IMG/VR virus record: IMGVR_UViG_3300047650_000023
Length of the DNA stretch: 64,000 nucleotides
From: a virus
Reading direction: 5' to 3' (one strand)
Position numbers and translations under genes: made by a program. This document shows, piece after piece, positions 2,797 through 61,700 of the stretch. The stretch's first letter is position 1; every line of letters begins with the position of its first letter. Below the pieces are notes generated by a model, which saw only the letters and a program-made list of their open reading frames with translations, was not told the DNA's origin and did not search any database.

Positions 2797-2842
2797 TTCT
2801 TTCAGTTTATTTATTCTATAGAAAGATAATTTGGTTAGGATT

Positions 2843-3154
2843 TTACAACATATATTTATTTGATATATCAGACCATATTTCTTGAAGAAAAGTATCGTGT
2901 TTTTCTTCTTCGTCTACATATGCCAAACTTAAAAAATATCGTTCCCAACATTGAAGTTTTTCTTCTGTTGTACAATGATCTTGACCATCAAAATCAAATT
3001 GTTCGTCTTTTTCTATACACTTCTTTTCACCCATATACCGAATATTTTGAGAAAAAGCAATATAAGGACATTCTTTATTTTCATCTATAAATATTCTTTT
3101 ACAAGTTAATCGTAACGCTTTTTTATAATCTTCAATTTTAAAATCTATATCCAT
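2843..3154 (-). CDS. Hypothetical protein
   Basis: 103-aa ORF with SD AGGAG; junction motif on both sides (2818, 3174). Confidence 0.65.
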   Translation of the reverse strand: MDIDFKIEDYKKALRLTCKRIFIDENKECPYIAFSQNIRYMGEKKCIEKDEQFDFDGQDHCTTEEKLQCWERYFLSLAYVDEEEKHDTFLQEIWSDISNKYML

Positions 3155-3535
3155 TTTAATCTCCTTTTCTACTATAAAATATAATTTTGGTCGTATTTTA
3201 GTTTTCTTTTTTAAATTTTCGTAATATCATCTGCCCCACATTCAGCTTCGTTTAGTATTTCTTCAAGATTATTATAACATTCATTTACGTCAAGAATATA
3301 CATTGTTGCTTTATATAGTTTAGCCATTATATTTTCCTTTCTCAACTACCATCAAATTTAAGATTGATTCACTTTATATATACATCCAAATAATGATATG
3401 ATAAGAATAATCATTGAAGTCATACAAATTTTCATGCTAAATGAATTTAAAGTCCAAAATACAATTAATCCAGAAAAGAAAAATATAATTGCACAAATAA
3501 TAGCTGCTTTTTTAAAAAAGTTTAAACTCATAATT

Positions 3536-3838
3536 TCACTCTTTCTTAACCCAATAATCAGGATATTCTCGTCTCAAAATCCTCATAGCTAATATTTGTT
3601 GGCATTTATGTATTCCATCTTGAAATATATCAATGTCATCTGGATGTTGTTTTTCTAATTGATTATATTCATTCCAAGCTGAAATTAGATTATCTATAAC
3701 TTTCTGTTCTTGCTCTGTTAAACCTGAATTTATTTCTACTTCCATATAACCACAAGTAGTACATCTATATTGTTGAAAATACGAATCCCAATCCATTAAA
3801 TCACTACATTGAGGACACATTTTAGTTTTATGAATCAT
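3536..3838 (-). CDS. Hypothetical protein with N-terminal Zn-ribbon
   Basis: CPQC...CTTC; SD AAGGAG. Confidence 0.65.
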   Translation of the reverse strand: MIHKTKMCPQCSDLMDWDSYFQQYRCTTCGYMEVEINSGLTEQEQKVIDNLISAWNEYNQLEKQHPDDIDIFQDGIHKCQQILAMRILRREYPDYWVKKE

Positions 3839-3882
3839 GATTATTTTACTCCTTTTTCTAAATCTCTAATCAATTTTAAAAT

Positions 3883-4080
3883 TTATTGACAGTCGCATGT
3901 ATCTTCGTGACATTGAATTATGTCTATTGTTTGATATCTTAATTGACTTTGAATTGAAAATAATAAATCGTTAAAATCTGGTCTATCTTCTTCTAAATCT
4001 ATATGTAGATTTGAATAAATCTCTATCCTAAGATTTTCAATTTCATCTGCAATTTCTTTTAATCTATTACTATAATACGT
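3883..4080 (-). CDS. 65-aa hypothetical protein with ACG start (or start-codon mutant)
   Basis: SD GAGGTG, 6 nt, then ACG TAT TAT AGT...; in-frame TAA directly before ACG; stop lies inside junction motif 3869-3886. Confidence 0.5.
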   Translation of the reverse strand, partial: TYYSNRLKEIADEIENLRIEIYSNLHIDLEEDRPDFNDLLFSIQSQLRYQTIDIIQCHEDTCDCQ

Positions 4081-4127
4081 TTACCTCACCTCTTAACTAT
4101 CGTAGAATGGCAGATTGATGATATATT

Positions 4128-4400
4128 TTAATTACTTATATATAATGAACCATTTGCTTTTAATCTTGGTGTTATAGCAATTGCAGGACTATCTCCACCA
4201 TAACCTCCTGATCCTGATACAACTATATAATTTACACCAGTATCTTTATCTACAACATACATGGTGCTATAATTTCCATTATTATTTTGCGCCCATATTT
4301 GAAGTGGTGCTGTTTGGTCATCTGCTGTTACTGTTTTAGATGAACATGCTCCCAAACCAAACATTGTTATTAAAATCATAATCATTAATATTTTCTTCAT
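4128..4400 (-). CDS. Small lipoprotein
   Basis: Signal peptide with lipobox LGAC; YVVDKDTGVNYIV...AITPRL pattern. Confidence 0.75.
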   Translation of the reverse strand: MKKILMIMILITMFGLGACSSKTVTADDQTAPLQIWAQNNNGNYSTMYVVDKDTGVNYIVVSGSGGYGGDSPAIAITPRLKANGSLYISN

Positions 4401-4440
4401 TATTTCAATTCTTCTTTCTAAATCTCATAGATTTGTAATT

Positions 4441-4671
4441 CTATAAGATTTTTCGTAAACTTAACTTTTCCATATCATAATTGTTTCTGATATAATCTAC
4501 TAAATTATTAATTGTTATTTTAATAAATTCGTCTTTTAATTCTGAACGACAATAGCAATTACAAGAATTTTCTTTTCCATTTTGTTTATATTTATTAAGA
4601 CTAAATGTTACTTTAAATAATAATATATCATCAGGATTCTTTATTATTTTCTTTTTTAACCATTTGAACAT
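4441..4671 (-). CDS. Hypothetical protein
   Basis: 76-aa ORF; TAG stop inside junction motif 4427-4444. Confidence 0.6.
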   Translation of the reverse strand: MFKWLKKKIIKNPDDILLFKVTFSLNKYKQNGKENSCNCYCRSELKDEFIKITINNLVDYIRNNYDMEKLSLRKIL

Positions 4672-4717
4672 AATTCATTTTCCTTTCCTTTCTCAAACTT
4701 ACAATGAATCCATGAAT

Positions 4718-4915
4718 CTATTGTACTCGACCTAATATAAATTTTGTTTGATTAATTCCAAATGGAAAACTTGCAATACAAACCCAATTACTTTTTAATC
4801 TCCAAGATAATTCTTTTGTATCTGTTGTTTCAAAAACTTCTTTAACCATTGGAAATACATTGTTTTGTGGTTTAAATTCAGCTTCTCTAATAATTTTATC
4901 AAATTCATTTTCCAT
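4718..4915 (-). CDS. Hypothetical protein
   Basis: 65-aa ORF; TAG stop inside junction motif 4704-4721. Confidence 0.6.
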   Translation of the reverse strand: MENEFDKIIREAEFKPQNNVFPMVKEVFETTDTKELSWRLKSNWVCIASFPFGINQTKFILGRVQ

Positions 4916-5886: not shown

Positions 5887-6259
5887 TTAGGATTACTGCT
5901 TTTAATTTTTCTGGTTTTTGTACAGCACTTTTACAGCAAGTAGGTGGAGGGGTAAATTCGTGTAAATGTCCTTCTATTTTATCAATTGCTGTTTCAGCAG
6001 TGAGAGCGCATTCATGACATATATATAATTTTTTATTTTTTGATAATTGATATTTAAATGACCAGCCTTTTTCTCTTTTAAATTGTTGTTTACAAAAATA
6101 ACAATCTTTCCATAGAAAAGGATTTAATTTTACTAAACTATATTTTTCATAACCAATTTCTTTATAATAATCTTCTTTTGATTTTTCTCTTTTCATATTT
6201 ATCCTTTCTAACACAACTATGATCAAATCAAGAATTGATTGACTCTTCATTATAGTCAA
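5834..6259 (-). CDS. Hypothetical protein with Cys pairs
   Basis: CYFC...CHEC; likely start MKREKSK after SD GAAAGGA. Confidence 0.6.
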   Translation of the reverse strand: MTIMKSQSILDLIIVVLERINMKREKSKEDYYKEIGYEKYSLVKLNPFLWKDCYFCKQQFKREKGWSFKYQLSKNKKLYICHECALTAETAIDKIEGHLHEFTPPPTCCKSAVQKPEKLKAVILNENFSFHPDIDKDNKNR

Positions 6260-6599: not shown

Positions 6600-6656
6600 A
6601 TTATTTCTCCTTTAGTTTTTATTAATACTACGATCAAATCGATATTTTATGTGTTT

Positions 6657-7190: not shown

Positions 7191-7246
7191 TTCTTCTTTC
7201 TTAATTTATAATTTTATACAATAAAACTGATGATTGATTGTATATT

Positions 7247-9668: not shown

Positions 9669-9721
9669 CGTTATTCTCCTTCATATTTTTAATTTCTTTC
9701 AACTACAATAAAACATTAATT

Positions 9722-10246
9722 TCATTGTATTAAATATCCCATTTCATTCAAGACATTTTTGCTTTTCTTTCTTATCGTACTCATAATTGTATTTTGACTT
9801 CGATTGAGTATTCCTCTTACATCGACAAAAATTAAATATGTATTAAATATTTTTTTCTGATTTATATTCATATTTGAAATTAATTTATTATAAGCCTCTT
9901 TTACTTCTAATATATTATAATCTGAATAATCTGGTAACATATCTATTTTTTGTGTAGAACAATTATCATCATCTATACGAATGTTTTCGTTTAATGAACA
10001 TTCTTTATTATGCTTATCTAAGTTTTTAAAATAATGATATAAAGAAAATTGCATACATTTATACGCATATCTGCTAAATTTACAACCAATATCAGGATTA
10101 TAGTTTACTACTGCATTACACAGACCTTCTGCTAAATATCCGTATGTATCACTTAATGAAAGATTTTTAAGTTTTACAAAACTATATATTAGATGCTCAT
10201 TTTTAGCTACGATTGTTCGTTGCTCTTGTGTAAGTTTGTACTTCAT
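9722..10246 (-). CDS. Phage sigma-70-family RNA polymerase sigma factor
   Basis: Region 2-like GLCNAVVNYNPDIGCKFSRYAYKCM followed by CSLNENI. Confidence 0.75.
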   Translation of the reverse strand: MKYKLTQEQRTIVAKNEHLIYSFVKLKNLSLSDTYGYLAEGLCNAVVNYNPDIGCKFSRYAYKCMQFSLYHYFKNLDKHNKECSLNENIRIDDDNCSTQKIDMLPDYSDYNILEVKEAYNKLISNMNINQKKIFNTYLIFVDVRGILNRSQNTIMSTIRKKSKNVLNEMGYLIQ

Positions 10247-10344
10247 TACATTTCACCTTTCTTAATTTATTTATTATTGAAACCAAAATTTATTGTTTCC
10301 ACGTTATTATCCTTTCTTTTAATTTGTTTTCTTTGACACTTATT

Positions 10345-11463: not shown

Positions 11464-11985
11464 TCATCCTTGATATTTATTAAATAATTCGCCCATTATC
11501 ATATTGTTTTGTCCAGCAAGATCAATAGCTAAAGCACAAATATTTCTTTCTGTTGATGCTCCTATTTCTTCAGAAAAATATTCAAGAATATTTTTATATT
11601 TTCTCTCTTTTATATATCTATCATCAGGAGATAAATTCTTATTTTCTTTTTCCAAATCTTCCCTACCAGTTCCATCCCATGCTTTTATATAATGATTATT
11701 TATATTATATCTGCGATTAACTGCTCCCATATTTGAACCGTCAGCATAACGCCACCAACCCCAATCGTCCTTCCAATCGGAAGCATTATCTAATTCTTGA
11801 AAATTTTCATCGGTTAACTCCCACACTTGATAGTCCTCGCAATATTCCCCATTTTTATTTTTTATCTGATAAGTTTTCTTTGCATTAATATTCAAATTTT
11901 TTAAAGTTTGATCTAATTCTGCACCAAGAATTTCTTTCAATATAATCATTCCTTTCTTTTTTAAAAACCCAATCAAAGATGTCAT
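11464..11985 (-). CDS. Conserved phage hypothetical protein
   Basis: 173-aa ORF, WGWWRYADGSNMG. Confidence 0.65.
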   Translation of the reverse strand: MTSLIGFLKKKGMIILKEILGAELDQTLKNLNINAKKTYQIKNKNGEYCEDYQVWELTDENFQELDNASDWKDDWGWWRYADGSNMGAVNRRYNINNHYIKAWDGTGREDLEKENKNLSPDDRYIKERKYKNILEYFSEEIGASTERNICALAIDLAGQNNMIMGELFNKYQG

Positions 11986-12747
11986 TTATTGTAGTTTAGA
12001 TACTATACCTTGTATACGTTTATTTGCCATATCACAATATGTAGTATCGTTTTCAAATCCTATAAAGTTTCTTTTTGTGTTTATACATGCAACAGCCGTA
12101 CTTCCTGAACCAATACAATTATCAAGCACCAATTCATTCTCATTTGTATATGTATTAACTAACCACTCTAAACACTCGACTGGTTTCTGTGTGGGATGAA
12201 TCGTTGTTGACGGATGAGGCTTTTGAAATGTTAAAATTGATTTTGGATATTTCAAATTTCCTTTAGTCTCTACAGCATCTAATTCGCCATAATTAGTATT
12301 CCTTGAAAAATCTTCTTGTGATTTACCAACTGCATTTCCTCGACTATGACATTCTTTACCTTCAACCATCTGAGGATTATATGTAGGTGGTTTTTTATAA
12401 AATACACAAATATCTTCGTGACTACGCATTGGCATCTTCTTTGCGTTTAAGAACCCACTTGGAAGAGCCTTATCCCATACAAGATTATATTTCCACATCT
12501 TTCTGTTGCTCTGCATCAAGTCTGCTGTAAACATACCATTTGCAAATAATACAATTGCTCCATCGTCTTTTATGATTCTTGTATATTGCTCCCATAGCGG
12601 TTGAAATGGTATAACTGTATCCCATTTATTTCTTGCAGTTTGACCATATGGAAGATCACATAATATCATATCAATTGATTTATTATTAATATTTTGCATA
12701 CCAATTAGACAATCTTCATTATAAATTTTATTAATTTCTAAAATTAT
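11986..12747 (-). CDS. N6-adenine/N4-cytosine DNA methyltransferase (beta class)
   Basis: CDLPYG, HPTQKP and VLDNCIGSGST motifs; frame extends to (I)ILEINKIYNEDCLIG, implying an ATA start at 12747. Confidence 0.9.
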   Translation of the reverse strand: MILEINKIYNEDCLIGMQNINNKSIDMILCDLPYGQTARNKWDTVIPFQPLWEQYTRIIKDDGAIVLFANGMFTADLMQSNRKMWKYNLVWDKALPSGFLNAKKMPMRSHEDICVFYKKPPTYNPQMVEGKECHSRGNAVGKSQEDFSRNTNYGELDAVETKGNLKYPKSILTFQKPHPSTTIHPTQKPVECLEWLVNTYTNENELVLDNCIGSGSTAVACINTKRNFIGFENDTTYCDMANKRIQGIVSKLQ

Positions 12748-12814
12748 TAATCATTCTCCTTTAATTTATTGTTAAGCTCCAACTTCTAATCAAACTCTCA
12801 ATTGGTTAGAACAT

Positions 12815-15067
12815 TTAAAAAACCAATTTAGGATGTGCTATTTGATATAAACAATCCTGTAAATGAGTTTGTTTTTTATTAACCCCTTCTTGATTTACAG
12901 CCATTCTTAATGCACCTGTTTGAGCAATTAGGTCACATTTAATTTTGGCGCGAGTAATAGCTGTATATAATAATTCTCTTGTTAATAATGAATATGATGA
13001 AAAATCAATTCCAAAAATTATATGGTCAAATTGTGAACCTTGACTTTTATGTACCGTAATGGCGTATCCTAATTCGATATTATTGACTTGTGTTCCTTCT
13101 ACATATACTTTACCAATACCCATAAAATCAATTAACAATGCTTTATCTTCAGGATAAACTTCTTTTATAATACCTATATTACCATTGTAAATTGGAGGAT
13201 TAGTTTTATAAGTGTTTTGAGTGTTAATTACTTTATCTCCTTGCCTCAGAACGGTTGCTTTACCTTGTGAATATACTTTGATTTCTAATTTGTTGTTGCT
13301 TGAAGGATTATACAATTCTTGTATTGTATTATTAATATTCCAAGTACATGCACTTCCATTGTTTTTGATAGGTACAATAATTTGAGTTTCCATAATATTA
13401 AAATTGTTTTGACTCATAGCTGTAGAAAACACTTGCATAATCTTATAAAAAGTATTGTTTTTATCAGAATAACAATCCAAAGATAAATCTTGTAGTTCAC
13501 CTAAAATTGCATTACCTGTCCAATCCTTTTCAATAATTTGTATACCTTTTCTAATCTTTCTTGCTTCTGTAACAATTGCAGAAGCTTGTGCCTGTCTATG
13601 TACTTGACTAAGATATACCGTTGGAATTTCATCTGAATTAATCATATCGCAAGCTATATTTCCACAACCGATAGATTCTAACTGTCCCATATCTCCCAAA
13701 CAAATTAACTTTGCACCTGAAGGAATTGCTCTTAATAAATAATAAAATAAGTAAGCATCCACCATAGATATTTCATCAAGAATTATAATATCTGCTAAAA
13801 GAGGATTCTCGTCATGATATGTAAAACCGTTTTTCCCATATTCGCTTTTACAAGGATACCCTAACAATCTATGTATTGTATATCCTTCTTCTCCTGTAAC
13901 TTCTGTCATACGGGATGATGCTCTACCAGACAAAGCACACTGTACATAAGAATAATTTTTCAAAATTTCAAGTAGTGCAGAAACTAATGACGTTTTCCCT
14001 GTACCTGCTTCACCATGAATTAAAGTAATATTATTTTCTAAAGCAGTTTTAACACCACCAACTTGTTCTTCATTAAAACTCCACCCCTGTCTATGCTCAA
14101 CGTGTTTAATAGTATCTTCAAAGTTGGAATAAGTAATTTTTGTTTCTGCATTTTTTAATCGAATTAGTTCTTCTGCTATTTTTTCTTCTATATTAAAATA
14201 CTTTTTTAAGCCAATTTTTGTCTTTTCTTCATTCCACCAAAGATTTTCGCCAATATAATTTATTGACTCTGTTATTTGACTATCTAGTATTTCTTCTCCA
14301 AGATTATCAATAATTGCTCCCATTAATTCGTCTGGCGAAACCCAAGAACATCCATCTTGACCACTATCATCTAAATATTTAGTAATATAAGCTGAAATTC
14401 GTTCTATACTGTATTCATCCATACCCCCATCTAAAGCAATTTTATCTGCTGTTTTCCAACCTATTCCCTTAATTTCATTGCATAAAACATATGGGTTCTT
14501 AGTAACTTTTTCAATTATTAAGTCAGGAGATTTATATTTTTCCATAAGTCTTTGAACCATATTATTAGTTAAATTATATTTTTCTAGTTCAGTAAATATT
14601 TTAGCGATATGAATATTTTTATTAAATCTATCAATCCATCTTGCAGCAGTATCCATTCCGCAACCTTTTACTTTAACTAATGCAATAGCATCATTTTGTT
14701 TCAAATCTTCATATGGATTATCTAAAACTTTATACATATTATTAATTTGATTCTCAGTAAATAATGTTGATAAAAATTTTTTTTGTCCAACCTTATCGTG
14801 TTCATCAAAAACAATAGCACTATAAATTGAAATAATATTATACTGTTTCCCATACCTAGGATCATCTATAAAATTACCAGTTACAACATAAGTGCTACCA
14901 ATTTGTAACTTTGGCATATTTCCTTTAATAATTATATGATTATATTTATTGGTTTTAGGATCACCTTCTTTAACTTTATCGATTGATACATCTGCTATTC
15001 CCCATTCATTATTGTAGTGTATAATACTTTCTACACTACAAATCACCTTGATTTTGTCTTCTGCCAT
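12815..15067 (-). CDS. recD2: RecD2-like SF1B helicase
   Basis: GEAGTGKT, DEISMVD, GDMGQL and YAITVHKSQGSQF motifs with N-terminal OB/HhH region. Confidence 0.92.
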   Translation of the reverse strand: MAEDKIKVICSVESIIHYNNEWGIADVSIDKVKEGDPKTNKYNHIIIKGNMPKLQIGSTYVVTGNFIDDPRYGKQYNIISIYSAIVFDEHDKVGQKKFLSTLFTENQINNMYKVLDNPYEDLKQNDAIALVKVKGCGMDTAARWIDRFNKNIHIAKIFTELEKYNLTNNMVQRLMEKYKSPDLIIEKVTKNPYVLCNEIKGIGWKTADKIALDGGMDEYSIERISAYITKYLDDSGQDGCSWVSPDELMGAIIDNLGEEILDSQITESINYIGENLWWNEEKTKIGLKKYFNIEEKIAEELIRLKNAETKITYSNFEDTIKHVEHRQGWSFNEEQVGGVKTALENNITLIHGEAGTGKTSLVSALLEILKNYSYVQCALSGRASSRMTEVTGEEGYTIHRLLGYPCKSEYGKNGFTYHDENPLLADIIILDEISMVDAYLFYYLLRAIPSGAKLICLGDMGQLESIGCGNIACDMINSDEIPTVYLSQVHRQAQASAIVTEARKIRKGIQIIEKDWTGNAILGELQDLSLDCYSDKNNTFYKIMQVFSTAMSQNNFNIMETQIIVPIKNNGSACTWNINNTIQELYNPSSNNKLEIKVYSQGKATVLRQGDKVINTQNTYKTNPPIYNGNIGIIKEVYPEDKALLIDFMGIGKVYVEGTQVNNIELGYAITVHKSQGSQFDHIIFGIDFSSYSLLTRELLYTAITRAKIKCDLIAQTGALRMAVNQEGVNKKQTHLQDCLYQIAHPKLVF

Positions 15068-15088
15068 ATAATACCTCTATGTCTTTCT

Positions 15089-45937: not shown

Positions 45938-45950
45938 ACTAGATATTTAT

Positions 45951-47961: not shown

Positions 47962-47977
47962 ATATTTTATTCCTTTC

Positions 47978-48730
47978 TTATTTAATAATAACTTTAATAT
48001 TTTCAATTTCAAACATTTTACAAACCAAATATGTTGTATAACCATCAATCAAAACATAATCTGAATTAACAATAATATCATTATTAAACTTCTTATCAGT
48101 CTTATATTCTTTTACCCTATCAGCTATATTCTGTGGATTAGGTATTGTCTCAGCAAAATCATCAGAAATATGTATCTTATTTAAATTTACAAATTCCTTG
48201 ATTTGATTAAGCTTATCACATGCCATCTGTGCTTCCTCTTTAGTGGAAAACGTATTCTGTCCTGCACGATTAAAGTTTTTAATACTATTAGTAAGTTTAT
48301 ATTTAATAGTTGTAACTTCTGAGCCAATATTAATTTTCATACCAATAATCGTAAATATAGAATCTAATACTATCCATTTTTGCCTATTAGTTTCCGTATT
48401 ACCAACTCCATGACATTCAGGACAATCAATGATTTTATTGTTATATTCAATCTTCTTTTTACCATTACAAAACGAGCAAATTTTAGTGTCTTTAGTTGGA
48501 TTAATAATATAAACCTTATCACCTTTTATAAATTTAGATTGAATTGAAAGTGTATTCATTTTATCTTCTCCTTCGTTTATTTTATACCATGATCCATCTT
48601 TTATAAATTTATCAACCGAATCAGAATCATATTCTCTATAATGGTCTTTTTCCCATGTAACACTAAATTTATTATCTCCTACATATTCCGCTACAAACAA
48701 AATATTTGTACTATCATTCTTAACTTTAAA
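47978..48730 (-). CDS. Apparent two-gene fusion with DnaJ-like Zn finger and ParB-like C-terminus
   Basis: CSFCNG..CPECHGVG; IIVNSDYVLIDGYTTY; internal SD AAGGAG plus ATG at MNTLSIQ; start position approximate. Confidence 0.55.
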   Translation of the reverse strand, partial: FKVKNDSTNILFVAEYVGDNKFSVTWEKDHYREYDSDSVDKFIKDGSWYKINEGEDKMNTLSIQSKFIKGDKVYIINPTKDTKICSFCNGKKKIEYNNKIIDCPECHGVGNTETNRQKWIVLDSIFTIIGMKINIGSEVTTIKYKLTNSIKNFNRAGQNTFSTKEEAQMACDKLNQIKEFVNLNKIHISDDFAETIPNPQNIADRVKEYKTDKKFNNDIIVNSDYVLIDGYTTYLVCKMFEIENIKVIIK

Positions 48731-48817
48731 CGTAAATTTTTTATTCATAATACTTTCTCCTTTATATTTAATATATAAAACTACCATAAAACTGGAAATT
48801 TATAAGGTGTTTATGTA

Positions 48818-50197: not shown

Positions 50198-50270
50198 AAT
50201 ATTATCCTTTCATACTGTTAATAAAATTTCACTTTTATCGGCTTATTAATTTATTTCTTCTTCTGTTAAA

Positions 50271-50384: not shown

Positions 50385-51770
50385 TTAAATTGTTAATTGC
50401 TCATTTTCTTGATTAGGTGTCTCATTTGGAATATCATCATTACCTTGTTTACTATCGTCTACATTAGCCTCAGAACCGCTTGTATCAGCTTTAATATTAG
50501 TAGTAATATCAATTAACGTCTCACCTTTTAATCCAGCTAATGCTTCATTAATGGCTTGTAAACGTTTTTCAATATTCTCTTGATCTCCACTCTTATTACC
50601 ACGATGTCCTAAACCATCAATAAATTGTGAAGACGGTTCTTTAAAGAATTTGAATACCCAATCGGAAAATACTTCCACTGGAATATTATTTTTATAAGCT
50701 TGAATTGCGCCCCAAAACAATGCAGTTTGATATGGTTTTTTACCTTTAAACAATGGTATTACAAATAATTGATAATTCTTGATTTTTTTCTTAGTCTCTG
50801 TAGTGTCGGTTTTTTTCTTATGCTTAATAAATATATCAATTGCATTACTTAAATATTTACTTGCATTACGAATATCTAATTCGATATCTTGCGGTATTCC
50901 TTTTGCTCCATCTAATCTTGTATCATCTGTTTCGATAATATCATCAGTATCTTGAATCTCATTATTCGTAGCTTCATCTTTCTGTCTGAAATCACTTATT
51001 GCACTATTAATAATCTTTTTTGAAAGATTGGTTTTCCCATTATGATATAATAACGTCATAATTTGAAGTAATAAATTTAATCCATAATTTCCACCAACAG
51101 AATCAACTGTCATCATATGATATATCCATTTTTCATTGAGTATATCATCTAATACACCCAAAGTCTTATCGTCAATCATATTTCTTTGCTTATCAACATC
51201 TGTTAATGCTAATGTCCCTTCTGAATAAGTCACGAAAAGATTTTTTGCTTCTCTTTCTGAACAATTATTAAATATTAATATTCTAATATCAACATTTAAT
51301 ATTCTTTCTTGAATTTCTTTTGGTAATTCAGAAAAATATTTTCCATTTAAATCATCTGCTGTATATTCTTCATTATCAATTTTAAATGTTTGATATAAAG
51401 AATCAGATAGATTTAATTTAAACTTATTATGAACAAAAAAGAAAAAAGAAGTTGTTCTTTGCTGTCCTTCAAATATTTTAATTTCAACACTTTCAGAATC
51501 TGACCTATATGCAAAAACTTCTGGTACTGTAGATTTTTTGAAAGCAGTATACATTATTAAATTTGTCGCGCGTGGAGGTTTATAGACATATCTGCGTTGA
51601 GTTCTCATATATTTTTTTGGTTGCAAGACAATACCTTTCTTTGCAGCCTCACTAATATTAAAATTTTGAGCATCTTTTCCTGGTATTATGTGCTGATTCT
51701 CTATTTCAGTACATAAATATCCAACCTTCATAGTTGTTGGTTCTAAAGTATATGACATAATAATTTTCAC
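50385..51770 (-). CDS. DUF262/ParB-like domain protein (SPbeta YopQ-like)
   Basis: QRRYVY...NLI...VPEVF...IFEGQQRTTS; size and position next to the recombinase-fold gene. Confidence 0.7.
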   Translation of the reverse strand: MKIIMSYTLEPTTMKVGYLCTEIENQHIIPGKDAQNFNISEAAKKGIVLQPKKYMRTQRRYVYKPPRATNLIMYTAFKKSTVPEVFAYRSDSESVEIKIFEGQQRTTSFFFFVHNKFKLNLSDSLYQTFKIDNEEYTADDLNGKYFSELPKEIQERILNVDIRILIFNNCSEREAKNLFVTYSEGTLALTDVDKQRNMIDDKTLGVLDDILNEKWIYHMMTVDSVGGNYGLNLLLQIMTLLYHNGKTNLSKKIINSAISDFRQKDEATNNEIQDTDDIIETDDTRLDGAKGIPQDIELDIRNASKYLSNAIDIFIKHKKKTDTTETKKKIKNYQLFVIPLFKGKKPYQTALFWGAIQAYKNNIPVEVFSDWVFKFFKEPSSQFIDGLGHRGNKSGDQENIEKRLQAINEALAGLKGETLIDITTNIKADTSGSEANVDDSKQGNDDIPNETPNQENEQLTI

Positions 51771-51839
51771 CTTTCATTTCATAAAATTATACGAATTAAT
51801 TATAATATTTTAATAATATAATCATCAAGAAAACACTAA

Positions 51840-52892
51840 TTATTCCTTATAAAAACACATTTTCCAGTTATGATAATCATCATATAAATTAAATAAACTT
51901 GAAGTAGAATAATTATATTTTTCTGCTAATTTTTCTAATTCATTAAGCATTCCGCTATCAAGTTTAATATTATTTTCCTTTTCAAATAAATAAATATTAT
52001 AATAGAATCCTGAATCTTTAATGTTTTCATAAGAAAACGAATGTTTATAATACTTATTATCTTTAGCTTTTTCATTTTCATTAGCTTTACTTATAAAAAG
52101 ACTAATTTTTGATCGCATATTAGCAACAGAAAATGCTCTTGTAACTACATTTGTTTCTTGAACTGGTCTTAAAACATAATCAGTATTTTGATAAGTGAAC
52201 CCCCCTTGCCCTTGAAAACTGCTAGTGCTAAACCCTTCTGAATTAACAAATGACATCAAAAAATTAGCAACAGTATCATTAATCTTAAATTCTTTGTTAT
52301 TTGTTCTAATAATTTTATTCATATAATCAATTTCATTTTTTTGTAGATTACAGGTTTCCTCAAAAGTTAAACCTGCATTTGCTAAATAAAATGTTGCTCT
52401 AATAGTTTCAAATTGTTGTATTTCCGTATAATTATAAAAATCAATAACAGAATTAATTCCATTATCCAAATCATCAAAATCTTTGAAATACGTTTTTAAA
52501 ATAACATTATCAAGCGTGTCTGACATTATAACATCGTCTTTTGAAATCTCTTTAAACATTTTAATTGAATCATAATTTATTAAATCTTGAGACATACTCC
52601 ATTCAAAATATTTTTTAAGAACATTCTTCTTATTATAAAACGAACTAACCTTGGTTAATTTTAAACTTTTAAACCACTCTGATATTTCAATAATATTAAA
52701 CATGTTAATATCTTTATTATATTTTCTTTCAATATCACCACAAGATCTGAAAAACCTAATTATATTTGTCCTTGAAACTGGTTCTTGATCACCATAGTAT
52801 TCTTCTATAAATTCCATCTTTTGTTTGGTATTGTAAATTAGATCAAAATTTTCTTTAGGAATTCCATATTCTTTAATATAATTCTCAAACAT
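51840..52892 (-). CDS. Tyrosine-recombinase-fold protein with degenerate active site (MrpR/YopR-like repressor candidate)
   Basis: N-terminal core-binding region (KKNVLKKYFEW), box I GLTFEE (Arg lost), box II ENIKDSG (HxxR lost). Confidence 0.7.
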   Translation of the reverse strand: MFENYIKEYGIPKENFDLIYNTKQKMEFIEEYYGDQEPVSRTNIIRFFRSCGDIERKYNKDINMFNIIEISEWFKSLKLTKVSSFYNKKNVLKKYFEWSMSQDLINYDSIKMFKEISKDDVIMSDTLDNVILKTYFKDFDDLDNGINSVIDFYNYTEIQQFETIRATFYLANAGLTFEETCNLQKNEIDYMNKIIRTNNKEFKINDTVANFLMSFVNSEGFSTSSFQGQGGFTYQNTDYVLRPVQETNVVTRAFSVANMRSKISLFISKANENEKAKDNKYYKHSFSYENIKDSGFYYNIYLFEKENNIKLDSGMLNELEKLAEKYNYSTSSLFNLYDDYHNWKMCFYKE

Positions 52893-52936
52893 ATCAAATT
52901 CTCCTCAATAAATTATATTTTATTATCACACCTTTT

Positions 52937-52965
52937 ATTATATCAAATAAGAAACTAAATGTCAA
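52937..52965 (-). promoter_or_regulatory. Sigma-A promoter of the recombinase-fold gene
   Basis: TTGACA-17-TATAAT. Confidence 0.85.
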
Positions 52966-52996
52966 CAACTAAATTCACATTTTTTTAAAATAAATT

Positions 52997-53503
52997 TCAA
53001 TGAGATAGTGAATAAACAGCCATTTTTACTTTTTTGTCTAATAATCTTTGCATCATGGGAAGTTGCATTAATGTTTTTTCAGCAACTAATTCCTGCTGCT
53101 CATTTGTCATTTTACCTATTTTACCTTTTAATTGAAATTTATTTATATCTCTCATTTTTTCTACTTCTACGGCACTATCTTTAATTAATCCTACAATTTC
53201 ATTAACACTATAATTTACATGAACTGGACTATATTTATCAACTCTTGATGTTAAAGGGATTCCTACAAAACTATCACTTTCTACTAATGCTCTTGCATTT
53301 ACTGTTGTGCTAAAAAAATTATATTTATCATTTGATATAATAAGAACTGGGCGAATTCCACCTTGTTGACTACCTTTAGCATCCGTAAGGTCAGCATACC
53401 AAATTTCTCCCTCTTGAGGGTTAATTAATTTGGCATTGCTATAAGTAGAATTATACGTAGGGGTATGATTACAAGTGTTTGGATATTCCATAGTTTGCAA
53501 CAT
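52997..53503 (-). CDS. mazF: MazF/PemK-family endoribonuclease toxin
   Basis: GEIWYADL...GSQQGGIRPVLIISND..N...IPLTS...H. Confidence 0.9.
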   Translation of the reverse strand: MLQTMEYPNTCNHTPTYNSTYSNAKLINPQEGEIWYADLTDAKGSQQGGIRPVLIISNDKYNFFSTTVNARALVESDSFVGIPLTSRVDKYSPVHVNYSVNEIVGLIKDSAVEVEKMRDINKFQLKGKIGKMTNEQQELVAEKTLMQLPMMQRLLDKKVKMAVYSLSH

Positions 53504-53564
53504 GATATTCACCACCATCCTTTTATAATTTATTTTTATTGTGTCTAAATCATATTGCTTTATT

Positions 53565-53593
53565 ATATTAACATAGTTTTAATTTATTGTCAA
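53565..53593 (-). promoter_or_regulatory. Sigma-A promoter of mazF
   Basis: TTGACA-17-TAATAT with TG extension; TTAATTTATTT at 53613. Confidence 0.75.
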
Positions 53594-53634
53594 TACTATT
53601 TTATAATTATTTTTAATTTATTTTTATATAAATA

Positions 53635-53659
53635 AGGAGGATGATTATTTCATCCTCCT
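53635..53659 (-). terminator. Intrinsic terminator
   Basis: AGGAGGATGA-5nt-TCATCCTCCT followed by T-rich sequence on the minus strand. Confidence 0.8.
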
Positions 53660-53674
53660 ATTACTAATTTTTAA

Positions 53675-54100
53675 TTAACCTACTTTAATCTTTATACTAT
53701 TATCTATAAACGCAAAATTTAACACTTCTATTTCTTTTTGATCTAATTGGATTTCACTCAATTCATATGTAACCGCATTCTTATCTTGGTTATCTAGTTT
53801 AATTAATGCAGCTAAATAATAATGGCGTTTATTATCTAATATATCATCTTGAATTATTAAATTTAATTGAGGTAATTGTTTATCAGCGCATTCTTCAAAA
53901 GATTGCTCTAAAAGAAAATAATAAATTGAATCATATTCATAAGTCCTTTTCTTTAATCTTTCTAATGGAATCACTAAATTTTCATAAAACATATTGGATA
54001 ATGAAATATTCATATCCATATGGTTTGTCATATTAAGCATATCCATTGTAATTTCAAACCTATAAACACCATTTTCTTGATTTCCTATTAATTTTAACAT
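53675..54100 (-). CDS. Hypothetical acidic protein in the lysogeny block
   Basis: 141 aa, SD GGAGGT, own promoter and terminator. Confidence 0.7.
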   Translation of the reverse strand: MLKLIGNQENGVYRFEITMDMLNMTNHMDMNISLSNMFYENLVIPLERLKKRTYEYDSIYYFLLEQSFEECADKQLPQLNLIIQDDILDNKRHYYLAALIKLDNQDKNAVTYELSEIQLDQKEIEVLNFAFIDNSIKIKVG

Positions 54101-54143
54101 TTTGCTACCTCCATATTTTGTATATTGATTATTTTTTAGAGGT

Positions 54144-54172
54144 ATGATACCATACTAATGGTATGTTTTCAA
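54144..54172 (-). promoter_or_regulatory. Sigma-A promoter inside nested palindromes
   Basis: TTGAAA-17-TATCAT with TG extension; overlaps inverted repeats ATACCAT/ATGGTAT and AGAGGTAT/ATACCTCT. Confidence 0.65.
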
Positions 54173-54183
54173 ATACCTCTTAG

Positions 54184-54233
54184 TTAGTGATAACCGTTGG
54201 TTTGGGAGACTGTGCGGTTATCACTAATTTTTT
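54184..54233 (+). terminator. 13-bp hairpin with U-tract on the plus strand
   Basis: TTAGTGATAACCG-18nt-CGGTTATCACTAA followed by TTTTTT. Confidence 0.75.
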
Positions 54234-54238
54234 ATTGT

Positions 54239-54451
54239 TTATTCTCCCCTTCTATCTATAGGGTCACATTCAAATAGAATTTTGATGTCAACATTGAGTG
54301 CGTGAGACAAACGACATAAAACATCAATTGTAGGTGAAGTTTCACCATTTTCAATGTTATTAATATGTGTCCTTGAAACACCTGATAGAATTGACAAACT
54401 TCTTAATGTCATTCGTTTTTGTTTACGAATTTCTTTAAGGTAGATTTGCAT
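54239..54451 (-). CDS. XRE-family HTH transcriptional regulator
   Basis: LKEIRKQKRMTLRSLSILSGVSRTHINNIENGETSPTIDVLCRLSHAL. Confidence 0.93.
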   Translation of the reverse strand: MQIYLKEIRKQKRMTLRSLSILSGVSRTHINNIENGETSPTIDVLCRLSHALNVDIKILFECDPIDRRGE

Positions 54452-54907: not shown

Positions 54908-57169
54908 TTATAACGGAGTTGGTAAATGACTTATAAAAGTTTTCACACCTTCACTTGTTTGAATTAAATTCACAGAACACCATTTTTTCATATTTAAAAG
55001 TTCATCGATTTGAAAATCACCTAATTCTTCTTTTAACATTTGATAATTTTCTTTATGTGTTCCTTTTAACAACATATAACTTGCTCCTGCACCCTCTACC
55101 CCATCTAAAAGTGTCTTAAACTGTTTTAAATATTGACATGTAAAATAATAAGATATACCAAATTTACGTCCCTCGCAAATATTTTCAGCTATCAATTTAC
55201 TTGCTGTTTCAGCTTGATGTATTTCATCTGTTATTACATGAACAGTTCTAGGTTGTTTTTGTGTACTACCTCTAATTTGTGCTGACAACCATATTCTACT
55301 TAAAAAATAAGTTGTTAAAACATCTTTAATCCATTTCTTTTTAAATACACCTTCGGGCATTCTTATAAGAACAATTTTACCATCATTCATATATTTTACA
55401 AAATCAATATCATAATTTGGCTCAGATTTTAACATCATTTCAAGATATGGATTTCTTACTAATATATTAATTCTATCCATAATATTTTCTATTTTTGTTT
55501 CTTTTGTTCCACAAACCTTACCTTTAGAATCAATTTCATCTAATGAAAGCAAATCAAGAATTTTTATATCATCTTTAAGAAATAGCTTTTTTGAAATTAC
55601 ATCATCTATTATTTCGTGTCTAATTTTATAATTTTGAAGCATATTAATAACATCATAAATTTTTATTCTGCCTGTCATAAATGTAACCTTACAGGCAGTA
55701 TCCAATAATCGTGTCATTTTAGGTGTTAACGGTTGTGCTGTGCCATCATTTAAAGCATTTATTAAATATAAAACTTGCTCGGATAAATCACTAACGTTCC
55801 TTATAAGATCAAAACTTGTATAATTATTATCTAATTTAACTTCTGGAAAAGCTAAACCAGACAAATTCTTAACATCTGATAAATCAATTATAATAAGCTT
55901 GTCTTTGGGTATATATTGTTCCATTTTTCGTGATAATTCACAATCTTTAATATAATCCAAAACAATAGCACCATGATTAATTCTTGAAGCACAAACTGTA
56001 AAAGTTATTGTAACTTCTGATTTTCCACTTCCCATTCCTCCTACAACAATTTTAGGTAAACCCATAATATTATAATCATCTTGCCAATATACAGATTTTT
56101 CATTTCCATTTTTTATTGCTATTCCTATAGGTATACTTCCATTTAATAATATCGAAGGAATTTCAACTTCTCTCATATCAATAGATTGCATTTTAAATAA
56201 ATTTTGCAATGTAACTTGAGGTAGAAAACAAAGTTTTGCTGTTTCTTCAGTTGTAAGAATATTTCTTACTGGTGTAATACTTAACTTTCGTTCCTGCACA
56301 CGTTTTATATATCTTTCTGTTGAAATAATCTTTTTAGAAATCAAATAATTATCAAGTCGAATGGTATTATAACTTACTTCAAGAGCATGTAAAAGTTGTT
56401 CTCGGCAATCAATATTATCACTATGAGATATCAATCTAATTGTTGTATTATAAGCGTTAAATTTAGCTTTTTCTAATGTTGAACGACTCAATTTTTTATC
56501 ACGTAAAATTTTTGAAATATCATTATCTTCAATTTTAATCTTTTTAACTTGACTTTCGTCACCTAAAATAATCTCTTGAACAAGTTCACCTACAACAAGA
56601 CCACAATGAGCTAATGATTTAGCACAATTATTTATTAATTCGTTCTTATCCAATCTTAATTGATAAGACATAATACCATCTTTAAATTTTTGATATGCTT
56701 CTGAACAATTTAATCCCCATTCATAATTTTCAGGTGAAAATATATATTGAATTATTACATTTTCATTGTCTTTTAACATTTTTTGGATTTCCAACAGCGA
56801 ACCTATTGGTTCTAATTGACTACCATCAGTAGATAAACTTAGAAAATAATGATATTTCAATTCAAGTTCTCTTATTGCAGTATTATTATCAATAGACAGA
56901 TTGTATTTTTGTTCTGTTATTGTGCTTTTTTTAAGATTCTTTTTTATTATATCTATATCATTGTTATTTGAGGATGTAAGGTAAAAACCCACATCCTCTT
57001 TTTCAATCACAATTTCAAAACAAAATCGGTTATCTTTTATCCATGAACCACTTATTTTTTTATTCTGTTTACGTTGCCACAAGCTTTGATAATTGTGTAA
57101 TTCCCTAAATAATTCTTTTATATCATTTGATTGAACTTCTTTATCAGGAATTATTCTAAATGTTGTCAT
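54908..57169 (-). CDS. VirB4/VirD4/HerA-FtsK superfamily ATPase
   Basis: Walker A VGGMGSGKS, Walker B VITDEIHQ, and GRKFG..Y.FTCQY motif. Confidence 0.8.
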   Translation of the reverse strand: MTTFRIIPDKEVQSNDIKELFRELHNYQSLWQRKQNKKISGSWIKDNRFCFEIVIEKEDVGFYLTSSNNNDIDIIKKNLKKSTITEQKYNLSIDNNTAIRELELKYHYFLSLSTDGSQLEPIGSLLEIQKMLKDNENVIIQYIFSPENYEWGLNCSEAYQKFKDGIMSYQLRLDKNELINNCAKSLAHCGLVVGELVQEIILGDESQVKKIKIEDNDISKILRDKKLSRSTLEKAKFNAYNTTIRLISHSDNIDCREQLLHALEVSYNTIRLDNYLISKKIISTERYIKRVQERKLSITPVRNILTTEETAKLCFLPQVTLQNLFKMQSIDMREVEIPSILLNGSIPIGIAIKNGNEKSVYWQDDYNIMGLPKIVVGGMGSGKSEVTITFTVCASRINHGAIVLDYIKDCELSRKMEQYIPKDKLIIIDLSDVKNLSGLAFPEVKLDNNYTSFDLIRNVSDLSEQVLYLINALNDGTAQPLTPKMTRLLDTACKVTFMTGRIKIYDVINMLQNYKIRHEIIDDVISKKLFLKDDIKILDLLSLDEIDSKGKVCGTKETKIENIMDRINILVRNPYLEMMLKSEPNYDIDFVKYMNDGKIVLIRMPEGVFKKKWIKDVLTTYFLSRIWLSAQIRGSTQKQPRTVHVITDEIHQAETASKLIAENICEGRKFGISYYFTCQYLKQFKTLLDGVEGAGASYMLLKGTHKENYQMLKEELGDFQIDELLNMKKWCSVNLIQTSEGVKTFISHLPTPL

Positions 57170-59435: not shown

Positions 59436-59474
59436 ATAGTAGTAACTACTTCACTTAAAAGTAGTTACTACTAT
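59436..59474. repeat. 16-bp perfect inverted repeat (terminator or operator)
   Basis: ATAGTAGTAACTACTT-7nt-AAGTAGTTACTACTAT. Confidence 0.75.
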
Positions 59475-59545
59475 AAATCAACAATTTGGTGAGAGTTTTA
59501 TATCTATATATAGTATCTTATTATTTAGATTTATACTATATATAA
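59473..59545. promoter_or_regulatory. Composite site: 18-bp motif plus tandem NrdR-box-like pair
   Basis: ATAAAT-CAACAA-TTTGGT at 59473-59490, 13-bp gap, CTATATATAG at 59504, CTATATATAA at 59536. Confidence 0.55.
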
Positions 59546-59552
59546 ATATAAA

Positions 59553-60251
59553 TTAAATTCTTATTGGTATAATTTGATTGTAAAGTATTGTATGTCTATT
59601 ATCAATATCTCCGTTATCATGATAATGTCCAAAATACCAATGTTTGAAATCAAGTTTTTCTTCTAGTATATCAAAATATTCTTCAACTGGAGTTGGAGGA
59701 AGTTTATATAGACCAATTGTATAATTGTTATATTCTTCAAATATTTTAATAGAACAAGTATGACTAATTACATAATTAACTTTCCAATTATGTTTATCAA
59801 GATTTGTCATACCCTCATTAAATTCTGTTTGATTAGGCATTTCTTCAGCCCACCATGATATACCTTCAGTTCTACGCATTCTATCTACAGACTCAGCACC
59901 ACCCATAGTAAAGAATGTATGACTGTCAATATCAAATACTTGACCACGCAGGAGATGATATATACTATCCGAAATTTTATGTATCTTACCACCACTCCAA
60001 TACTCTACAGGATACTGATTCAAAAGATTAAAGTTTTCATGATTTCCATCCACAAACAAAGTAGTAAAGTTTTTATCGTTTAACCATTTACGCCAATATA
60101 TTTCTTCATGACTATTATTCCATACGCCACCAAAATCTCCACAAATAATAACATAATCATTCTTTGTCATTTGTTTTTGTTCTACAAAATTAGGCATTGA
60201 AAATTTTGTTATATCAATTGGAATATGCGTATCACCTGTTATATAAATCAT
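59553..60251 (-). CDS. Calcineurin-like metallophosphoesterase
   Basis: GDTH, CGDFG, DGNHEN, ISHT, FGHYH. Confidence 0.92.
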   Translation of the reverse strand: MIYITGDTHIPIDITKFSMPNFVEQKQMTKNDYVIICGDFGGVWNNSHEEIYWRKWLNDKNFTTLFVDGNHENFNLLNQYPVEYWSGGKIHKISDSIYHLLRGQVFDIDSHTFFTMGGAESVDRMRRTEGISWWAEEMPNQTEFNEGMTNLDKHNWKVNYVISHTCSIKIFEEYNNYTIGLYKLPPTPVEEYFDILEEKLDFKHWYFGHYHDNGDIDNRHTILYNQIIPIRI

Positions 60252-60259
60252 TTTTTACC

Positions 60260-60499
60260 TCACCATAAATTCTCTGAATATAAAACTCCATGTTCATATC
60301 CATTTTCCCATATTATCTGACTACATTCTTTAGCTATAATCCATGTCTATTCTCTATCCACAAACTCTCCTGTGTCTGTTATAAAGCATTGTTCACCCTC
60401 TCTAATACAACCGTGGGGCAATGTATTCTTAAAGATATCACCGTGTCTATGACCTGTGTAAATGATGTTATCTTTACGTATGGTTGAATTTACTATCAT
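60260..60499 (-). pseudogene. 79-codon phage gene with in-frame TAG at 60347-60349
   Basis: MIVNSTIRKD..TGHRHGDI...FITDTGEFVDRE*TWIIAKECSQI...LYSENLW. Confidence 0.7.
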
Positions 60500-60500
60500 C

Positions 60501-60707
60501 TTATTTCCTTTCTCGTTTAATTATTTGAATACCCTTTAACGCTGTAAAGAACCACCCTAACCCCATCATAAATGTTACAAGATATACGGTAGGAAAAATA
60601 CCTATCCACTTTGTAAATACAAATATCAAAAATCCTATAATAGAAAACAGTATTGTTATACAAGCTACAATTAGAAAGTTAATTTGTTGCTTCAAATATT
60701 TATTCAT
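60501..60707 (-). CDS. Small membrane protein (2 TM)
   Basis: Hydrophobic 68-aa ORF. Confidence 0.6.
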   Translation of the reverse strand: MNKYLKQQINFLIVACITILFSIIGFLIFVFTKWIGIFPTVYLVTFMMGLGWFFTALKGIQIIKRERK

Positions 60708-60744
60708 CTTGCCTCCAAATATAGCTTAAAACTTACTTATTATA

Positions 60745-61305
60745 TTATTCTTGATAATATGGTCTTAACTTATTAGCTAAATCAATAGCATCATTTAATA
60801 AATCTTCATTAAATCTGCCAAAACACTTATTTTTACCATTAATATAAAACATTACAGACCACTTTTTATTTTTATTAATCCAGTATACATTTTTACAACC
60901 ACTTTTACTACGACTTAAATTTTCATTTTTTAAACATCCACAACTTTTTACATTACTATTAAGATCAATGCCTTTTATAATACAAAATTTACCACAATCG
61001 CATTTACATAAAAATAAACTACATCCATGATCTCCTTTATAATCTAATCTTTCAAGAACATTTAATTTTCCAAATTTCTTTCCAACTATATTTTTAGTAC
61101 GTTTTTGTCTTTCTTCCATTACTTCACGATACAAACAACCGCACGATTTTACCTTCCCATTTAACAACAATTCTCTACGAATAATTTTTTTATTTCCACA
61201 ATCACAAACGCAATTCCAAAAGCTATGCCCATTTTTACGTCCAGCATAACTAATAACTGTTAATCTATCAAACTTCTGATCAGTTAAATCTTTAAATTCA
61301 CTCAT
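60745..61305 (-). CDS. AP2-domain DNA-binding protein (homing-endonuclease-related)
   Basis: Two DLT.QKF.RLTV...W.CVCDCG...KSCGCL repeats plus SGCKNVYW...KW AP2. Confidence 0.8.
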   Translation of the reverse strand: MSEFKDLTDQKFDRLTVISYAGRKNGHSFWNCVCDCGNKKIIRRELLLNGKVKSCGCLYREVMEERQKRTKNIVGKKFGKLNVLERLDYKGDHGCSLFLCKCDCGKFCIIKGIDLNSNVKSCGCLKNENLSRSKSGCKNVYWINKNKKWSVMFYINGKNKCFGRFNEDLLNDAIDLANKLRPYYQE

Positions 61306-61418
61306 TAAATATCACCCTGCTTATAATATTATTATACAATTTAATTATTTATGCCATTATAATTAAAATTTTATATAAAACATTATTTTTTATATTATAA
61401 AACGTAGATTTGCTTGTA

Positions 61419-61652
61419 TTAATCCCAACGTATATTTGCAAAATTACCTTTTCTTTCTTCCCTTATATTTTGTAATACTAAATCCCATTCTGTTACTATC
61501 TTTAAATTATCTGCTCTATGACATACACCATATTTAAACTTAATTTCATTCATTGAATTTTTCAGATTAAAACCAATAACTTTTCCTATAATCCACCCTG
61601 TACTTATATTTTTACAATAATCACCAACTTTAAAACCTTTATATTCTTCCAC
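61419..61652 (-). CDS. Hypothetical protein
   Basis: 77 aa, between motifs at 61397 and 61668. Confidence 0.6.
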   Translation of the reverse strand: MEEYKGFKVGDYCKNISTGWIIGKVIGFNLKNSMNEIKFKYGVCHRADNLKIVTEWDLVLQNIREERKGNFANIRWD

Positions 61653-61700
61653 GATTTTTCACCTCTTATAAAACACAGGCTTTATAAACACTTTAATTTT

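Follow-up and report, generated by a model that had tools for sequence, protein, structure and literature searches.

We analysed a 63,925-bp viral contig from IMG/VR (IMGVR_UViG_3300047650_000023; hereafter the window), with an estimated completeness of 39%, and in it a short palindrome, ATMRAA-N6-WTYKAT, that punctuates arrays of small accessory genes. The window has a GC content of 27% and carries all of its genes on the minus strand. The region 12815-25334 shares synteny with yorF-yorL, the replication genes of SPbeta, and encodes homologues of PolIII-alpha (39.6% identity to the SPbeta protein) and of YorG, YorI and YorJ (36-50%). Genes for an NAD ligase, a RecD-like helicase, two methylases, a ParM-like actin and a GIY-YIG endonuclease were also recognised. 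Based on the yorF-yorL synteny and these other recognisable genes, the window is, as judged from its sequence, part of a distant SPbeta-like phage. Megablast against phage records returned no match, and a scan of a genome collection gave a single match, a metagenome-assembled genome labelled Treponema, which does not settle the host. The replication block is the only part of the window that aligns with the related phages G002 and G003 (71-75% identity), and the accessory arrays are almost wholly unrelated between the phages that have the palindrome in common.

A strictly spaced palindrome between genes

The palindrome, hereafter the dyad, consists of two inverted six-base arms around a six-base spacer. 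The pattern gave 33 strand-hits in the window, corresponding to 24 distinct sites, compared to 4.95 +/- 2.58 strand-hits in dinucleotide shuffles. When the spacer was varied from 2 to 11 bases, the numbers of distinct sites were 4, 6, 2, 2, 24, 3, 3, 2, 4 and 3, with the peak at N6, and a control with the arms swapped gave 2 sites. All but one of the strict sites (23/24) were located outside open reading frames (ORFs), where the non-coding share of the window is 13.2%; shuffled intergenic segments contained 0.70 +/- 0.81 strict sites, with a maximum of 4. With up to one mismatch allowed, 48 intergenic and 39 coding hits were obtained. Since the intergenic density was ~8-fold higher than the coding density, we estimate about 42 real sites in the window at this threshold. 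Together, these results show that the dyad is real, strictly spaced and intergenic. A first-pass annotation of the window had described this palindrome, with a variable 6-bp core, as punctuating the gene arrays, and the spacer, shuffle and intergenic counts confirm that description. Of the 43 starts that it listed, 20 are strict sites and 20 have one mismatch, and those at 4704 and 45467 have two mismatches and that at 25381, which it had marked as weak, has three. Its list lacked the strict intergenic sites at 6222, 11972 and 61864. The sites are given below, graded by mismatches to the IUPAC pattern ATMRAA-N6-WTYKAT and by position weight matrix (PWM) score; (-) denotes the minus strand.

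2818-2835 (-): dyad site; 1 mismatch, PWM 13.1; stop 7 nt before, start 21 nt after
3174-3191 (-): dyad site; 1 mismatch, PWM 13.5
3351-3368 (-): dyad site; strict, PWM 14.6; overlaps the upstream stop
3869-3886 (-): dyad site; 1 mismatch, PWM 11.3
4102-4119 (-): weaker dyad site; 1 mismatch, PWM 9.6
4427-4444 (-): dyad site; strict, PWM 9.5
4704-4721 (-): doubtful dyad site; 2 mismatches, PWM 7.8
6222-6239 (-): dyad site, newly listed; strict, PWM 14.6
6633-6650 (-): dyad site; strict, PWM 13.7
7221-7238 (-): dyad site; strict, PWM 13.7; palindrome arms reach 10 nt
9708-9725 (-): dyad site; 1 mismatch, PWM 11.1
10276-10293 (-): doubtful dyad site; 1 mismatch, PWM 7.9
11972-11989 (-): dyad site, newly listed; strict, PWM 13.0
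12789-12806 (-): dyad site; 1 mismatch, PWM 13.7
25381-25398 (-): probably not a site; 3 mismatches, PWM 6.3
26071-26088 (-): dyad site; 1 mismatch, PWM 12.1
27560-27577 (-): dyad site; 1 mismatch, PWM 11.1; abuts the stop
28335-28352 (-): dyad site; strict, PWM 12.0; CTATATATAG-type palindrome before it
30616-30633 (-): dyad site; strict, PWM 13.6
31027-31044 (-): dyad site; 1 mismatch, PWM 10.8
31807-31824 (-): dyad site; strict, PWM 13.7
32299-32316 (-): dyad site; strict, PWM 12.4
32663-32680 (-): dyad site upstream of a canonical sigma-A promoter; strict, PWM 12.8; TTGACA-N17-TATAAT follows in the same gap
33377-33394 (-): dyad site; strict, PWM 12.5
35097-35114 (-): dyad site; strict, PWM 12.8
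35929-35946 (-): dyad site; strict, PWM 13.6
37579-37596 (-): dyad site; strict, PWM 13.7
38288-38305 (-): dyad site; strict, PWM 13.9
39321-39338 (-): dyad site; 1 mismatch, PWM 11.6
40563-40580 (-): dyad site upstream of a sigma-A-type promoter; 1 mismatch, PWM 10.7
42043-42060 (-): dyad site; 1 mismatch, PWM 12.9
43047-43064 (-): dyad site; 1 mismatch, PWM 13.5; abuts the stop, start 14 nt after
43360-43377 (-): dyad site with the best score; strict, PWM 15.3
43489-43506 (-): doubtful dyad site; 1 mismatch, PWM 8.2
44188-44205 (-): dyad site; strict, PWM 12.5
45467-45484 (-): weaker dyad site; 2 mismatches, PWM 10.7
45933-45950 (-): weaker dyad site; 1 mismatch, PWM 9.4
46785-46802 (-): dyad site; strict, PWM 13.3
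47129-47146 (-): dyad site; strict, PWM 11.7
47359-47376 (-): doubtful dyad site; 1 mismatch, PWM 8.0
48786-48803 (-): dyad site; strict, PWM 12.1
50221-50238 (-): dyad site downstream of a canonical sigma-A promoter; strict, PWM 12.8; TTGACA-N17-TATAAT precedes it in the same gap
59473-59490 (-): dyad site; 1 mismatch, PWM 11.9
61397-61414 (-): dyad site; 1 mismatch, PWM 11.9
61668-61685 (-): weaker dyad site; 1 mismatch, PWM 9.8
61864-61881 (-): dyad site, newly listed; strict, PWM 14.6

In the direction of the genes, most sites start from 12 nt before to 19 nt after the upstream stop codon and finish 13-40 nt ahead of the next start. Of the roughly 45 sites counted with one mismatch allowed, nearly all fall in the gap from a stop codon to the following ribosome-binding site. 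These distances bear out the earlier placement of the sites at or just after a stop and before the next ribosome-binding site. No site with a PWM score of at least 11 was found between 12789 and 26071 or between 50221 and 59473, in agreement with the first-pass annotation, which had seen none in the replication and lysogeny/partition blocks. The genes of the replication block are nearly contiguous, and the lysogeny/partition block is without good sites though its gaps are large.

The information profile of the dyad is strong at A1, T2, M3, A4 and A5 and at T14, T15, K16, A17 and T18, with an uninformative centre: spacer columns 7-12 hold almost no information, and the spacer sequences vary from site to site. 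The weaker flanks are also palindromic in part, with TAYA to the left and the complementary sequence to the right, and in this phage they extend the arms to ~10 bases, lengthening the half-site ATMRAA to TAYA-ATMAAW. The core is symmetric, and the flanks alone are weakly direction-specific. Dyad positions 3 and 16 combine freely (C-T 11, C-G 9, A-G 7, A-T 10), and the arm pairing total was 197 compared to 195.8 in shuffled arms, showing no co-variation. Since the two half-sites are independent, equally degenerate and held at a fixed distance, the dyad reads as a site for a symmetric protein dimer on duplex DNA and not as a hairpin.

The dyad in SPbeta-like phages and its possible partner

SPbeta itself carries 34 exact copies of TAAAA-N6-TTTTA, compared to 0-3 copies at other spacers and 2 with swapped arms. 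The copies are mostly in the early region and 27/34 are intergenic, the left arm often containing a TAA stop codon. ATMRAA-N6-WTYKAT is enriched in related IMG/VR contigs (67 hits vs 7 for the control in G001, 25 vs 1 in G002), and enrichment was also observed in G004, G019, G020, G028 and G031. In G001 the stop codon is followed by the dyad and then by a Shine-Dalgarno sequence starting 1-4 nt past the right arm. The half-site is ATAAAA in SPbeta, G004, G019 and G028, ATCAAW as well as ATAAAA in the window phage and G001, and ATAGAA in G002. The G003 clade has ARGAAA-N6-TTTCYT, with 13 copies at N6, none at spacers 3-9 and 1 at spacer 10. The replication genes of G002 and G003 share ~82% DNA identity, yet their half-sites differ. 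Because the half-sites are lineage-specific at a constant 6-6-6 geometry, this combination of constant geometry and drifting specificity points to a co-evolving phage protein, and the drift resembles the co-variation of repressor and stoperator in mycobacteriophages (PMC6550527). By these patterns, the dyad belongs to the SPbeta-like phages as a family. SPbeta has long served as a model phage, for which repressor structures have been solved and binding has been mapped genome-wide; the palindrome, which occupies 30-70 early-gene junctions of SPbeta and its relatives, is not described in the SPbeta literature searched, a search that did not extend to the paper on the second repressor, SroE.

The accessory arrays of the window have no alignable relative, and the breakpoint test was therefore made on SPbeta and phi3T, which both carry the same dyad class and share homology blocks with 36 ends. 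A dyad centre was located within 10 nt of 5/36 block ends and within 20 nt of 9/36. A uniform null predicts 0.49 ends within 10 nt (P = 0.0004); relative to a null of random intergenic positions the excess was modest (P about 0.02). At base level, several blocks begin precisely where the left arm does, one block end falls at the border of left arm and spacer, and one falls within the right arm. Dyads flank a 3.2-kb block of 100% identity at either end, and at several junctions the spacer goes with the downstream gene. Some junctions of the G028 mosaic with L070 and L096 are likewise located on the arms. Since the SPbeta/phi3T block ends fall on the element above the chance prediction, exchanges end on dyads, and dyads mark joints of gene exchange, by whichever mechanism. 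A dedicated mechanism and micro-homology combined with selection for intact genes would both fit the data. The first-pass annotation had proposed that the sites allow genes to be gained, lost or reordered by a recombinase; the alignment upholds the exchange at the sites, and the recombinase mechanism is not supported, for the reasons given below.

We slightly favour, at a little better than even chances, the reading that a dimeric phage protein docks on the dyad at the junctions of early genes, where it may act as a road-block or insulator, and that the dyad is secondarily an exchange joint. A two-fold symmetric, phage-encoded dimer would dock on double-stranded DNA through half-sites exactly 6 bases apart, with one dyad in most short gaps between co-directional small early genes. 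Its most likely job would be to mark or silence each early-gene junction, and by analogy with mycobacteriophage stoperators or the KorB operators of RK2 it may act in the prophage as a road-block or insulator that limits read-through transcription. The presence of the same short sequence at every junction would then provide a preferred joint for gene exchange between related phages. Both the identity of the protein and the effect of its binding are what we infer here. The first-pass annotation had offered a genome-wide operator or nucleoid-protein site as its alternative, and of its two proposals this one fits better.

The stoperators of cluster A mycobacteriophages (L5 gp71 type) are non-dyad, transcription-oriented sites of 13-14 bp that are bound by a monomer of the immunity repressor (PMC6550527). 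Like the dyads, they comprise at least 20-30 copies of one short site, placed mostly in short co-directional gaps away from promoters, and their motif varies between related phages as the dyad half-sites do. In contrast, stoperators are asymmetric and have a known repressor, whereas the dyad is a symmetric 6-6-6 element. KorB-OB of RK2 and ParB-parS are dispersed palindromes on mobile elements, at which a ParB-fold dimer silences many operons. The dyads are palindromic and dispersed too, and the window encodes a ParB-fold protein beside its SroF-like gene; KorB-OB and parS differ in their fixed centres and far fewer copies, and the ParB-fold protein of the window is a candidate only. The two genes are as follows.

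50385-51770 (-): ParB-fold (GmrSD_N/DUF262) gene beside the SroF-like gene, candidate binder; Pfam GmrSD_N, E 2.5e-8
51840-52892 (-): SroF/MrpR-type integrase-fold repressor gene, probably not the binder; Pfam MrpR_N_CB, E 6.5e-14

SPbeta YopQ carries a DndB domain, and DndB and GmrSD_N are both, we assume, to be placed among ParB-like folds. The 50385-51770 protein is the positional analogue of SroE/YopQ and is a candidate dyad binder; ParB-like proteins are present in most relatives.

Several observations weigh against a docked phage protein acting as a road-block. Junctions exceed the intergenic null only modestly, and because the site directly adjoins the stop codon, part of that excess is unavoidable. 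The known master repressor, MrpR, is not the binder, since chromatin affinity purification sequencing (ChAP-seq) in SPbeta gave no peaks at dyads (PMC10516654), and the second repressor, SroE, has no readable motif in the literature searched. A search by gene sharing did not find a dyad-binding protein: beyond the replication genes and a radical-SAM protein, no window ORF was widely shared, and the small shared ORFs had no DNA-binding domain except for the remnant of an HNH-AP2 endonuclease. The radical-SAM protein had served as the bait for relatives and is a biased marker of sharing. The binder could possibly be a host protein. Finally, the road-block is proposed by analogy, and the stoperators that inspire it are asymmetric and oriented whereas the dyads are symmetric.

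If a protein does dock at the dyads, it would add a further layer of control over the large accessory arrays, where many non-essential genes of the phage reside, with silencing of the whole region, insulation of each gene and guidance of gene exchange as candidate roles. The lineage-specific half-sites offer a direct route to the partner protein and may explain immunity or incompatibility groups among SPbeta-like phages. The exchange junctions on dyads bear on how phage mosaic genomes are assembled.

Alternative readings of the dyad

It is unlikely that the dyad is a passive linker with no protein partner that matters, which persists by aiding homologous or micro-homology gene swaps at safe places. 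The mosaic junctions on the arms, in SPbeta/phi3T and some in G028, are consistent with this, as are the unrelated accessory arrays of dyad-bearing phages. The PeSL (promoter early stem-loop) cassettes of T4-type phages provide a precedent: these repeats at the borders of small non-essential early genes mediate such shuffling, and replacements between relatives end there (PMC2839356), as gene replacements between SPbeta and phi3T end at the dyad. However, each arm conserves just 5-6 bases, very little for homologous recombination to work on, and strict spacing, dyad symmetry and lineage-specific half-sites are features that a protein imposes and recombination does not need. PeSLs themselves function as a sigma-70 promoter and a terminator stem-loop, and the dyad is neither, having no -35/-10 boxes and no stable stem.

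An element of the polycistronic mRNA, such as an intercistronic hairpin, a processing site or a translation enhancer ahead of the ribosome-binding site, is improbable. Such an element would explain why most start codons have the site 13-40 nt ahead of them, why the G001 Shine-Dalgarno sequence follows the right arm so closely and why the spacer stays with the downstream gene at several SPbeta/phi3T junctions. However, the mean fold of the 26-nt element as RNA was -2.0 kcal/mol, compared to -1.05 kcal/mol for shuffles, with the arms paired in 13/41 sites and 7/41 sites unfolded. The arms do not co-vary, ~40% of sites would have a central mismatch in a 6-pair A-U stem, and single-stranded RNA gives no reason for the identical degeneracy of both arms. 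In addition, the sites at 32663, 35097, 40563 and 61397 precede the promoter from which the next gene is transcribed.

We consider it similarly improbable that the SPbeta family possesses a dedicated gene-exchange system acting at the dyads, in which a phage protein, perhaps an integrase-family protein of unexplained role or a ParB-fold protein, would pair dyads, with crossover at the arm-spacer borders. If this were true, the early genes would be mobile cassettes in a phage analogue of the integron with a different chemistry.

The integron-like mechanism of the first-pass annotation, in which a tyrosine-recombinase-type enzyme cuts at the spacer borders of dedicated recombination sites and moves single genes, is more doubtful. 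Inverted arms around a 6-8 base centre, found at gene-cassette borders, are common to attC, dif and loxP core sites and to the 6-6-6 dyad, whose arms extend to ~10 bases in the window. The SPbeta/phi3T junctions at the left arm, the arm-spacer border or the right arm would suit such cutting. SPbeta-like phages also have extra integrase-family genes of unclear role, including YopP with a Phage_integrase domain, and G001 has a Phage_integrase gene beside its SroE/SroF-like genes. However, no protein of the window, which represents 39% of the genome, carries a Phage_integrase domain (PF00589). The AlphaFold model of the 51840-52892 protein (pLDDT 92.7) gave its best Foldseek matches to phi3T SroF-DNA (9rd5), YopR (8bj6) and MrpR (8a0a), ahead of true recombinases, and an alignment of the 40-member SroF-like family showed no conserved R-H-R-Y set. 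The only integrase-fold protein of the window is thus, by its model, a SroF/MrpR-type repressor. Moreover, the spacer differs at every site, and most tyrosine recombinases do not tolerate this. The lack of arm co-variation and the marginal fold argue against an attC-like folded site. Sites of the attC type are 57-141 bp long, far above the 18-26 bases of the dyad. The window dyads are without an integron integrase, attI or Pc, and the excess of junctions over the intergenic null reached P about 0.02 only.

An operator of the SroF/MrpR-type master repressor, equivalent to the SPbeta repeated element (SPBRE), was our first hypothesis, based on the Pfam match, and is now very unlikely. The window carries a gene for such a protein, the dyad is, like SPBRE, a repeated intergenic element of this phage family, and the presence of MrpR_N_CB (PF22822) partly tracks the ATMRAA-type motif among complete relatives. 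We rejected this reading since SPbeta has both SPBRE and dyads, SPBRE having a different conserved sequence inside sigma-A promoters, and since G003 (97% complete) lacks a PF22822 match in spite of its dyads. In SPbeta, MrpR ChAP-seq yielded ten peaks, every one of them at an SPBRE promoter (PMC10516654). A single SroF molecule recognises its box, which is asymmetric and 26 bp long (bioRxiv 10.1101/2025.11.27.690993). The SPBRE/phi3T box (MrpR = YopR = SroF) is described as an asymmetric, monomer-read box of ~24-26 bp with ~10 copies inside sigma-A promoters (PMC10516654; bioRxiv 10.1101/2025.11.27.690993), whereas the dyad is symmetric, has a free centre and about 45 copies and stands apart from promoters. 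Because its family binds a different, asymmetric box, the SroF-type protein is probably not the binder.

Promoters were found separately from the dyads: TTGACA-N17-TATAAT is present in at least seven gaps of the window, those ending at 42327, 32554, 53513, 50198, 52893, 10247 and 40383. A sigma-A promoter within the dyad was rejected, as no -35/-10 boxes are in register with the site and the real promoters are elsewhere. The dyad is upstream of the promoter at 32663, 35097, 40563 and 61397 and downstream of it at 50221 and 38288; since it stands on either side of promoters, the dyad is tied to the gap and not to the promoter or leader. A promoter for a phage-specific RNA polymerase or sigma factor, suggested by a repeated element just upstream of most genes and by the YonO polymerase of SPbeta-like phages, is the least credible reading, given that transcription by YonO starts at a single site and covers the late operon (PMC5467207), not the early arrays, that the A invariant in -10 boxes is missing from the right arm, that a transcript begun at a G001 dyad would miss its Shine-Dalgarno sequence, that ordinary promoters are present separately, and that dyad symmetry is not a promoter property.

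Neighbouring motifs and genes

Three of the canonical promoters have a longer upstream string, AATAGTATTGACAA, in common, a candidate location for the true operator of the SroF-like repressor. In the larger gaps, pairs of palindromes with a CTATATATAG core, 31-32 bp apart, were observed directly upstream of a dyad. Palindromes of the CTATATATAG type are located at 28396-28409, 35126-35170, 37608-37619, 39350-39393 and 59502-59547, and the pattern count was 39 hits vs 20.4 expected. In G003, a CTATATATAG-type motif likewise lies ahead of that phage's own dyads. The pairs may be akin to tandem NrdR boxes, through which the host represses ribonucleotide reductase genes. If they are NrdR boxes, several early phage operons would be tied to host control of deoxynucleoside triphosphates.

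The region 50385-54451 is a lysogeny block of the sro type with a changed gene order: a helix-turn-helix protein (54239-54451), a 141-aa protein, a PemK/MazF-like toxin-domain protein (52997-53518), the SroF-like protein and the ParB-fold protein. The ParB-fold gene is ahead of the SroF gene in SPbeta and G001 and behind it in the window. SPbeta-family phages act on the host MazEF system (PMC10769878), which makes a phage-borne MazF-like domain notable.

Homing-endonuclease genes and remnants (HNH-AP2, HNH and GIY-YIG SegE-like) are dispersed in the arrays at 26115-26447, 47389-48048, 41072-41593 and 297-1346, and could provide a second route to local gene conversion at the borders of genes. 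The region 54908-57169 encodes a 753-aa protein with no Pfam match and a full-length match to PHROG 5156 (function unknown; E 6.6e-118). In IMG/VR, a search for close relatives of the window returned none for its SroF-like and amidoligase genes. The exact protein encoded at 51840-52892 (P0001) is also recorded on a 187,759-bp contig; therefore a longer or complete copy of this phage genome exists.

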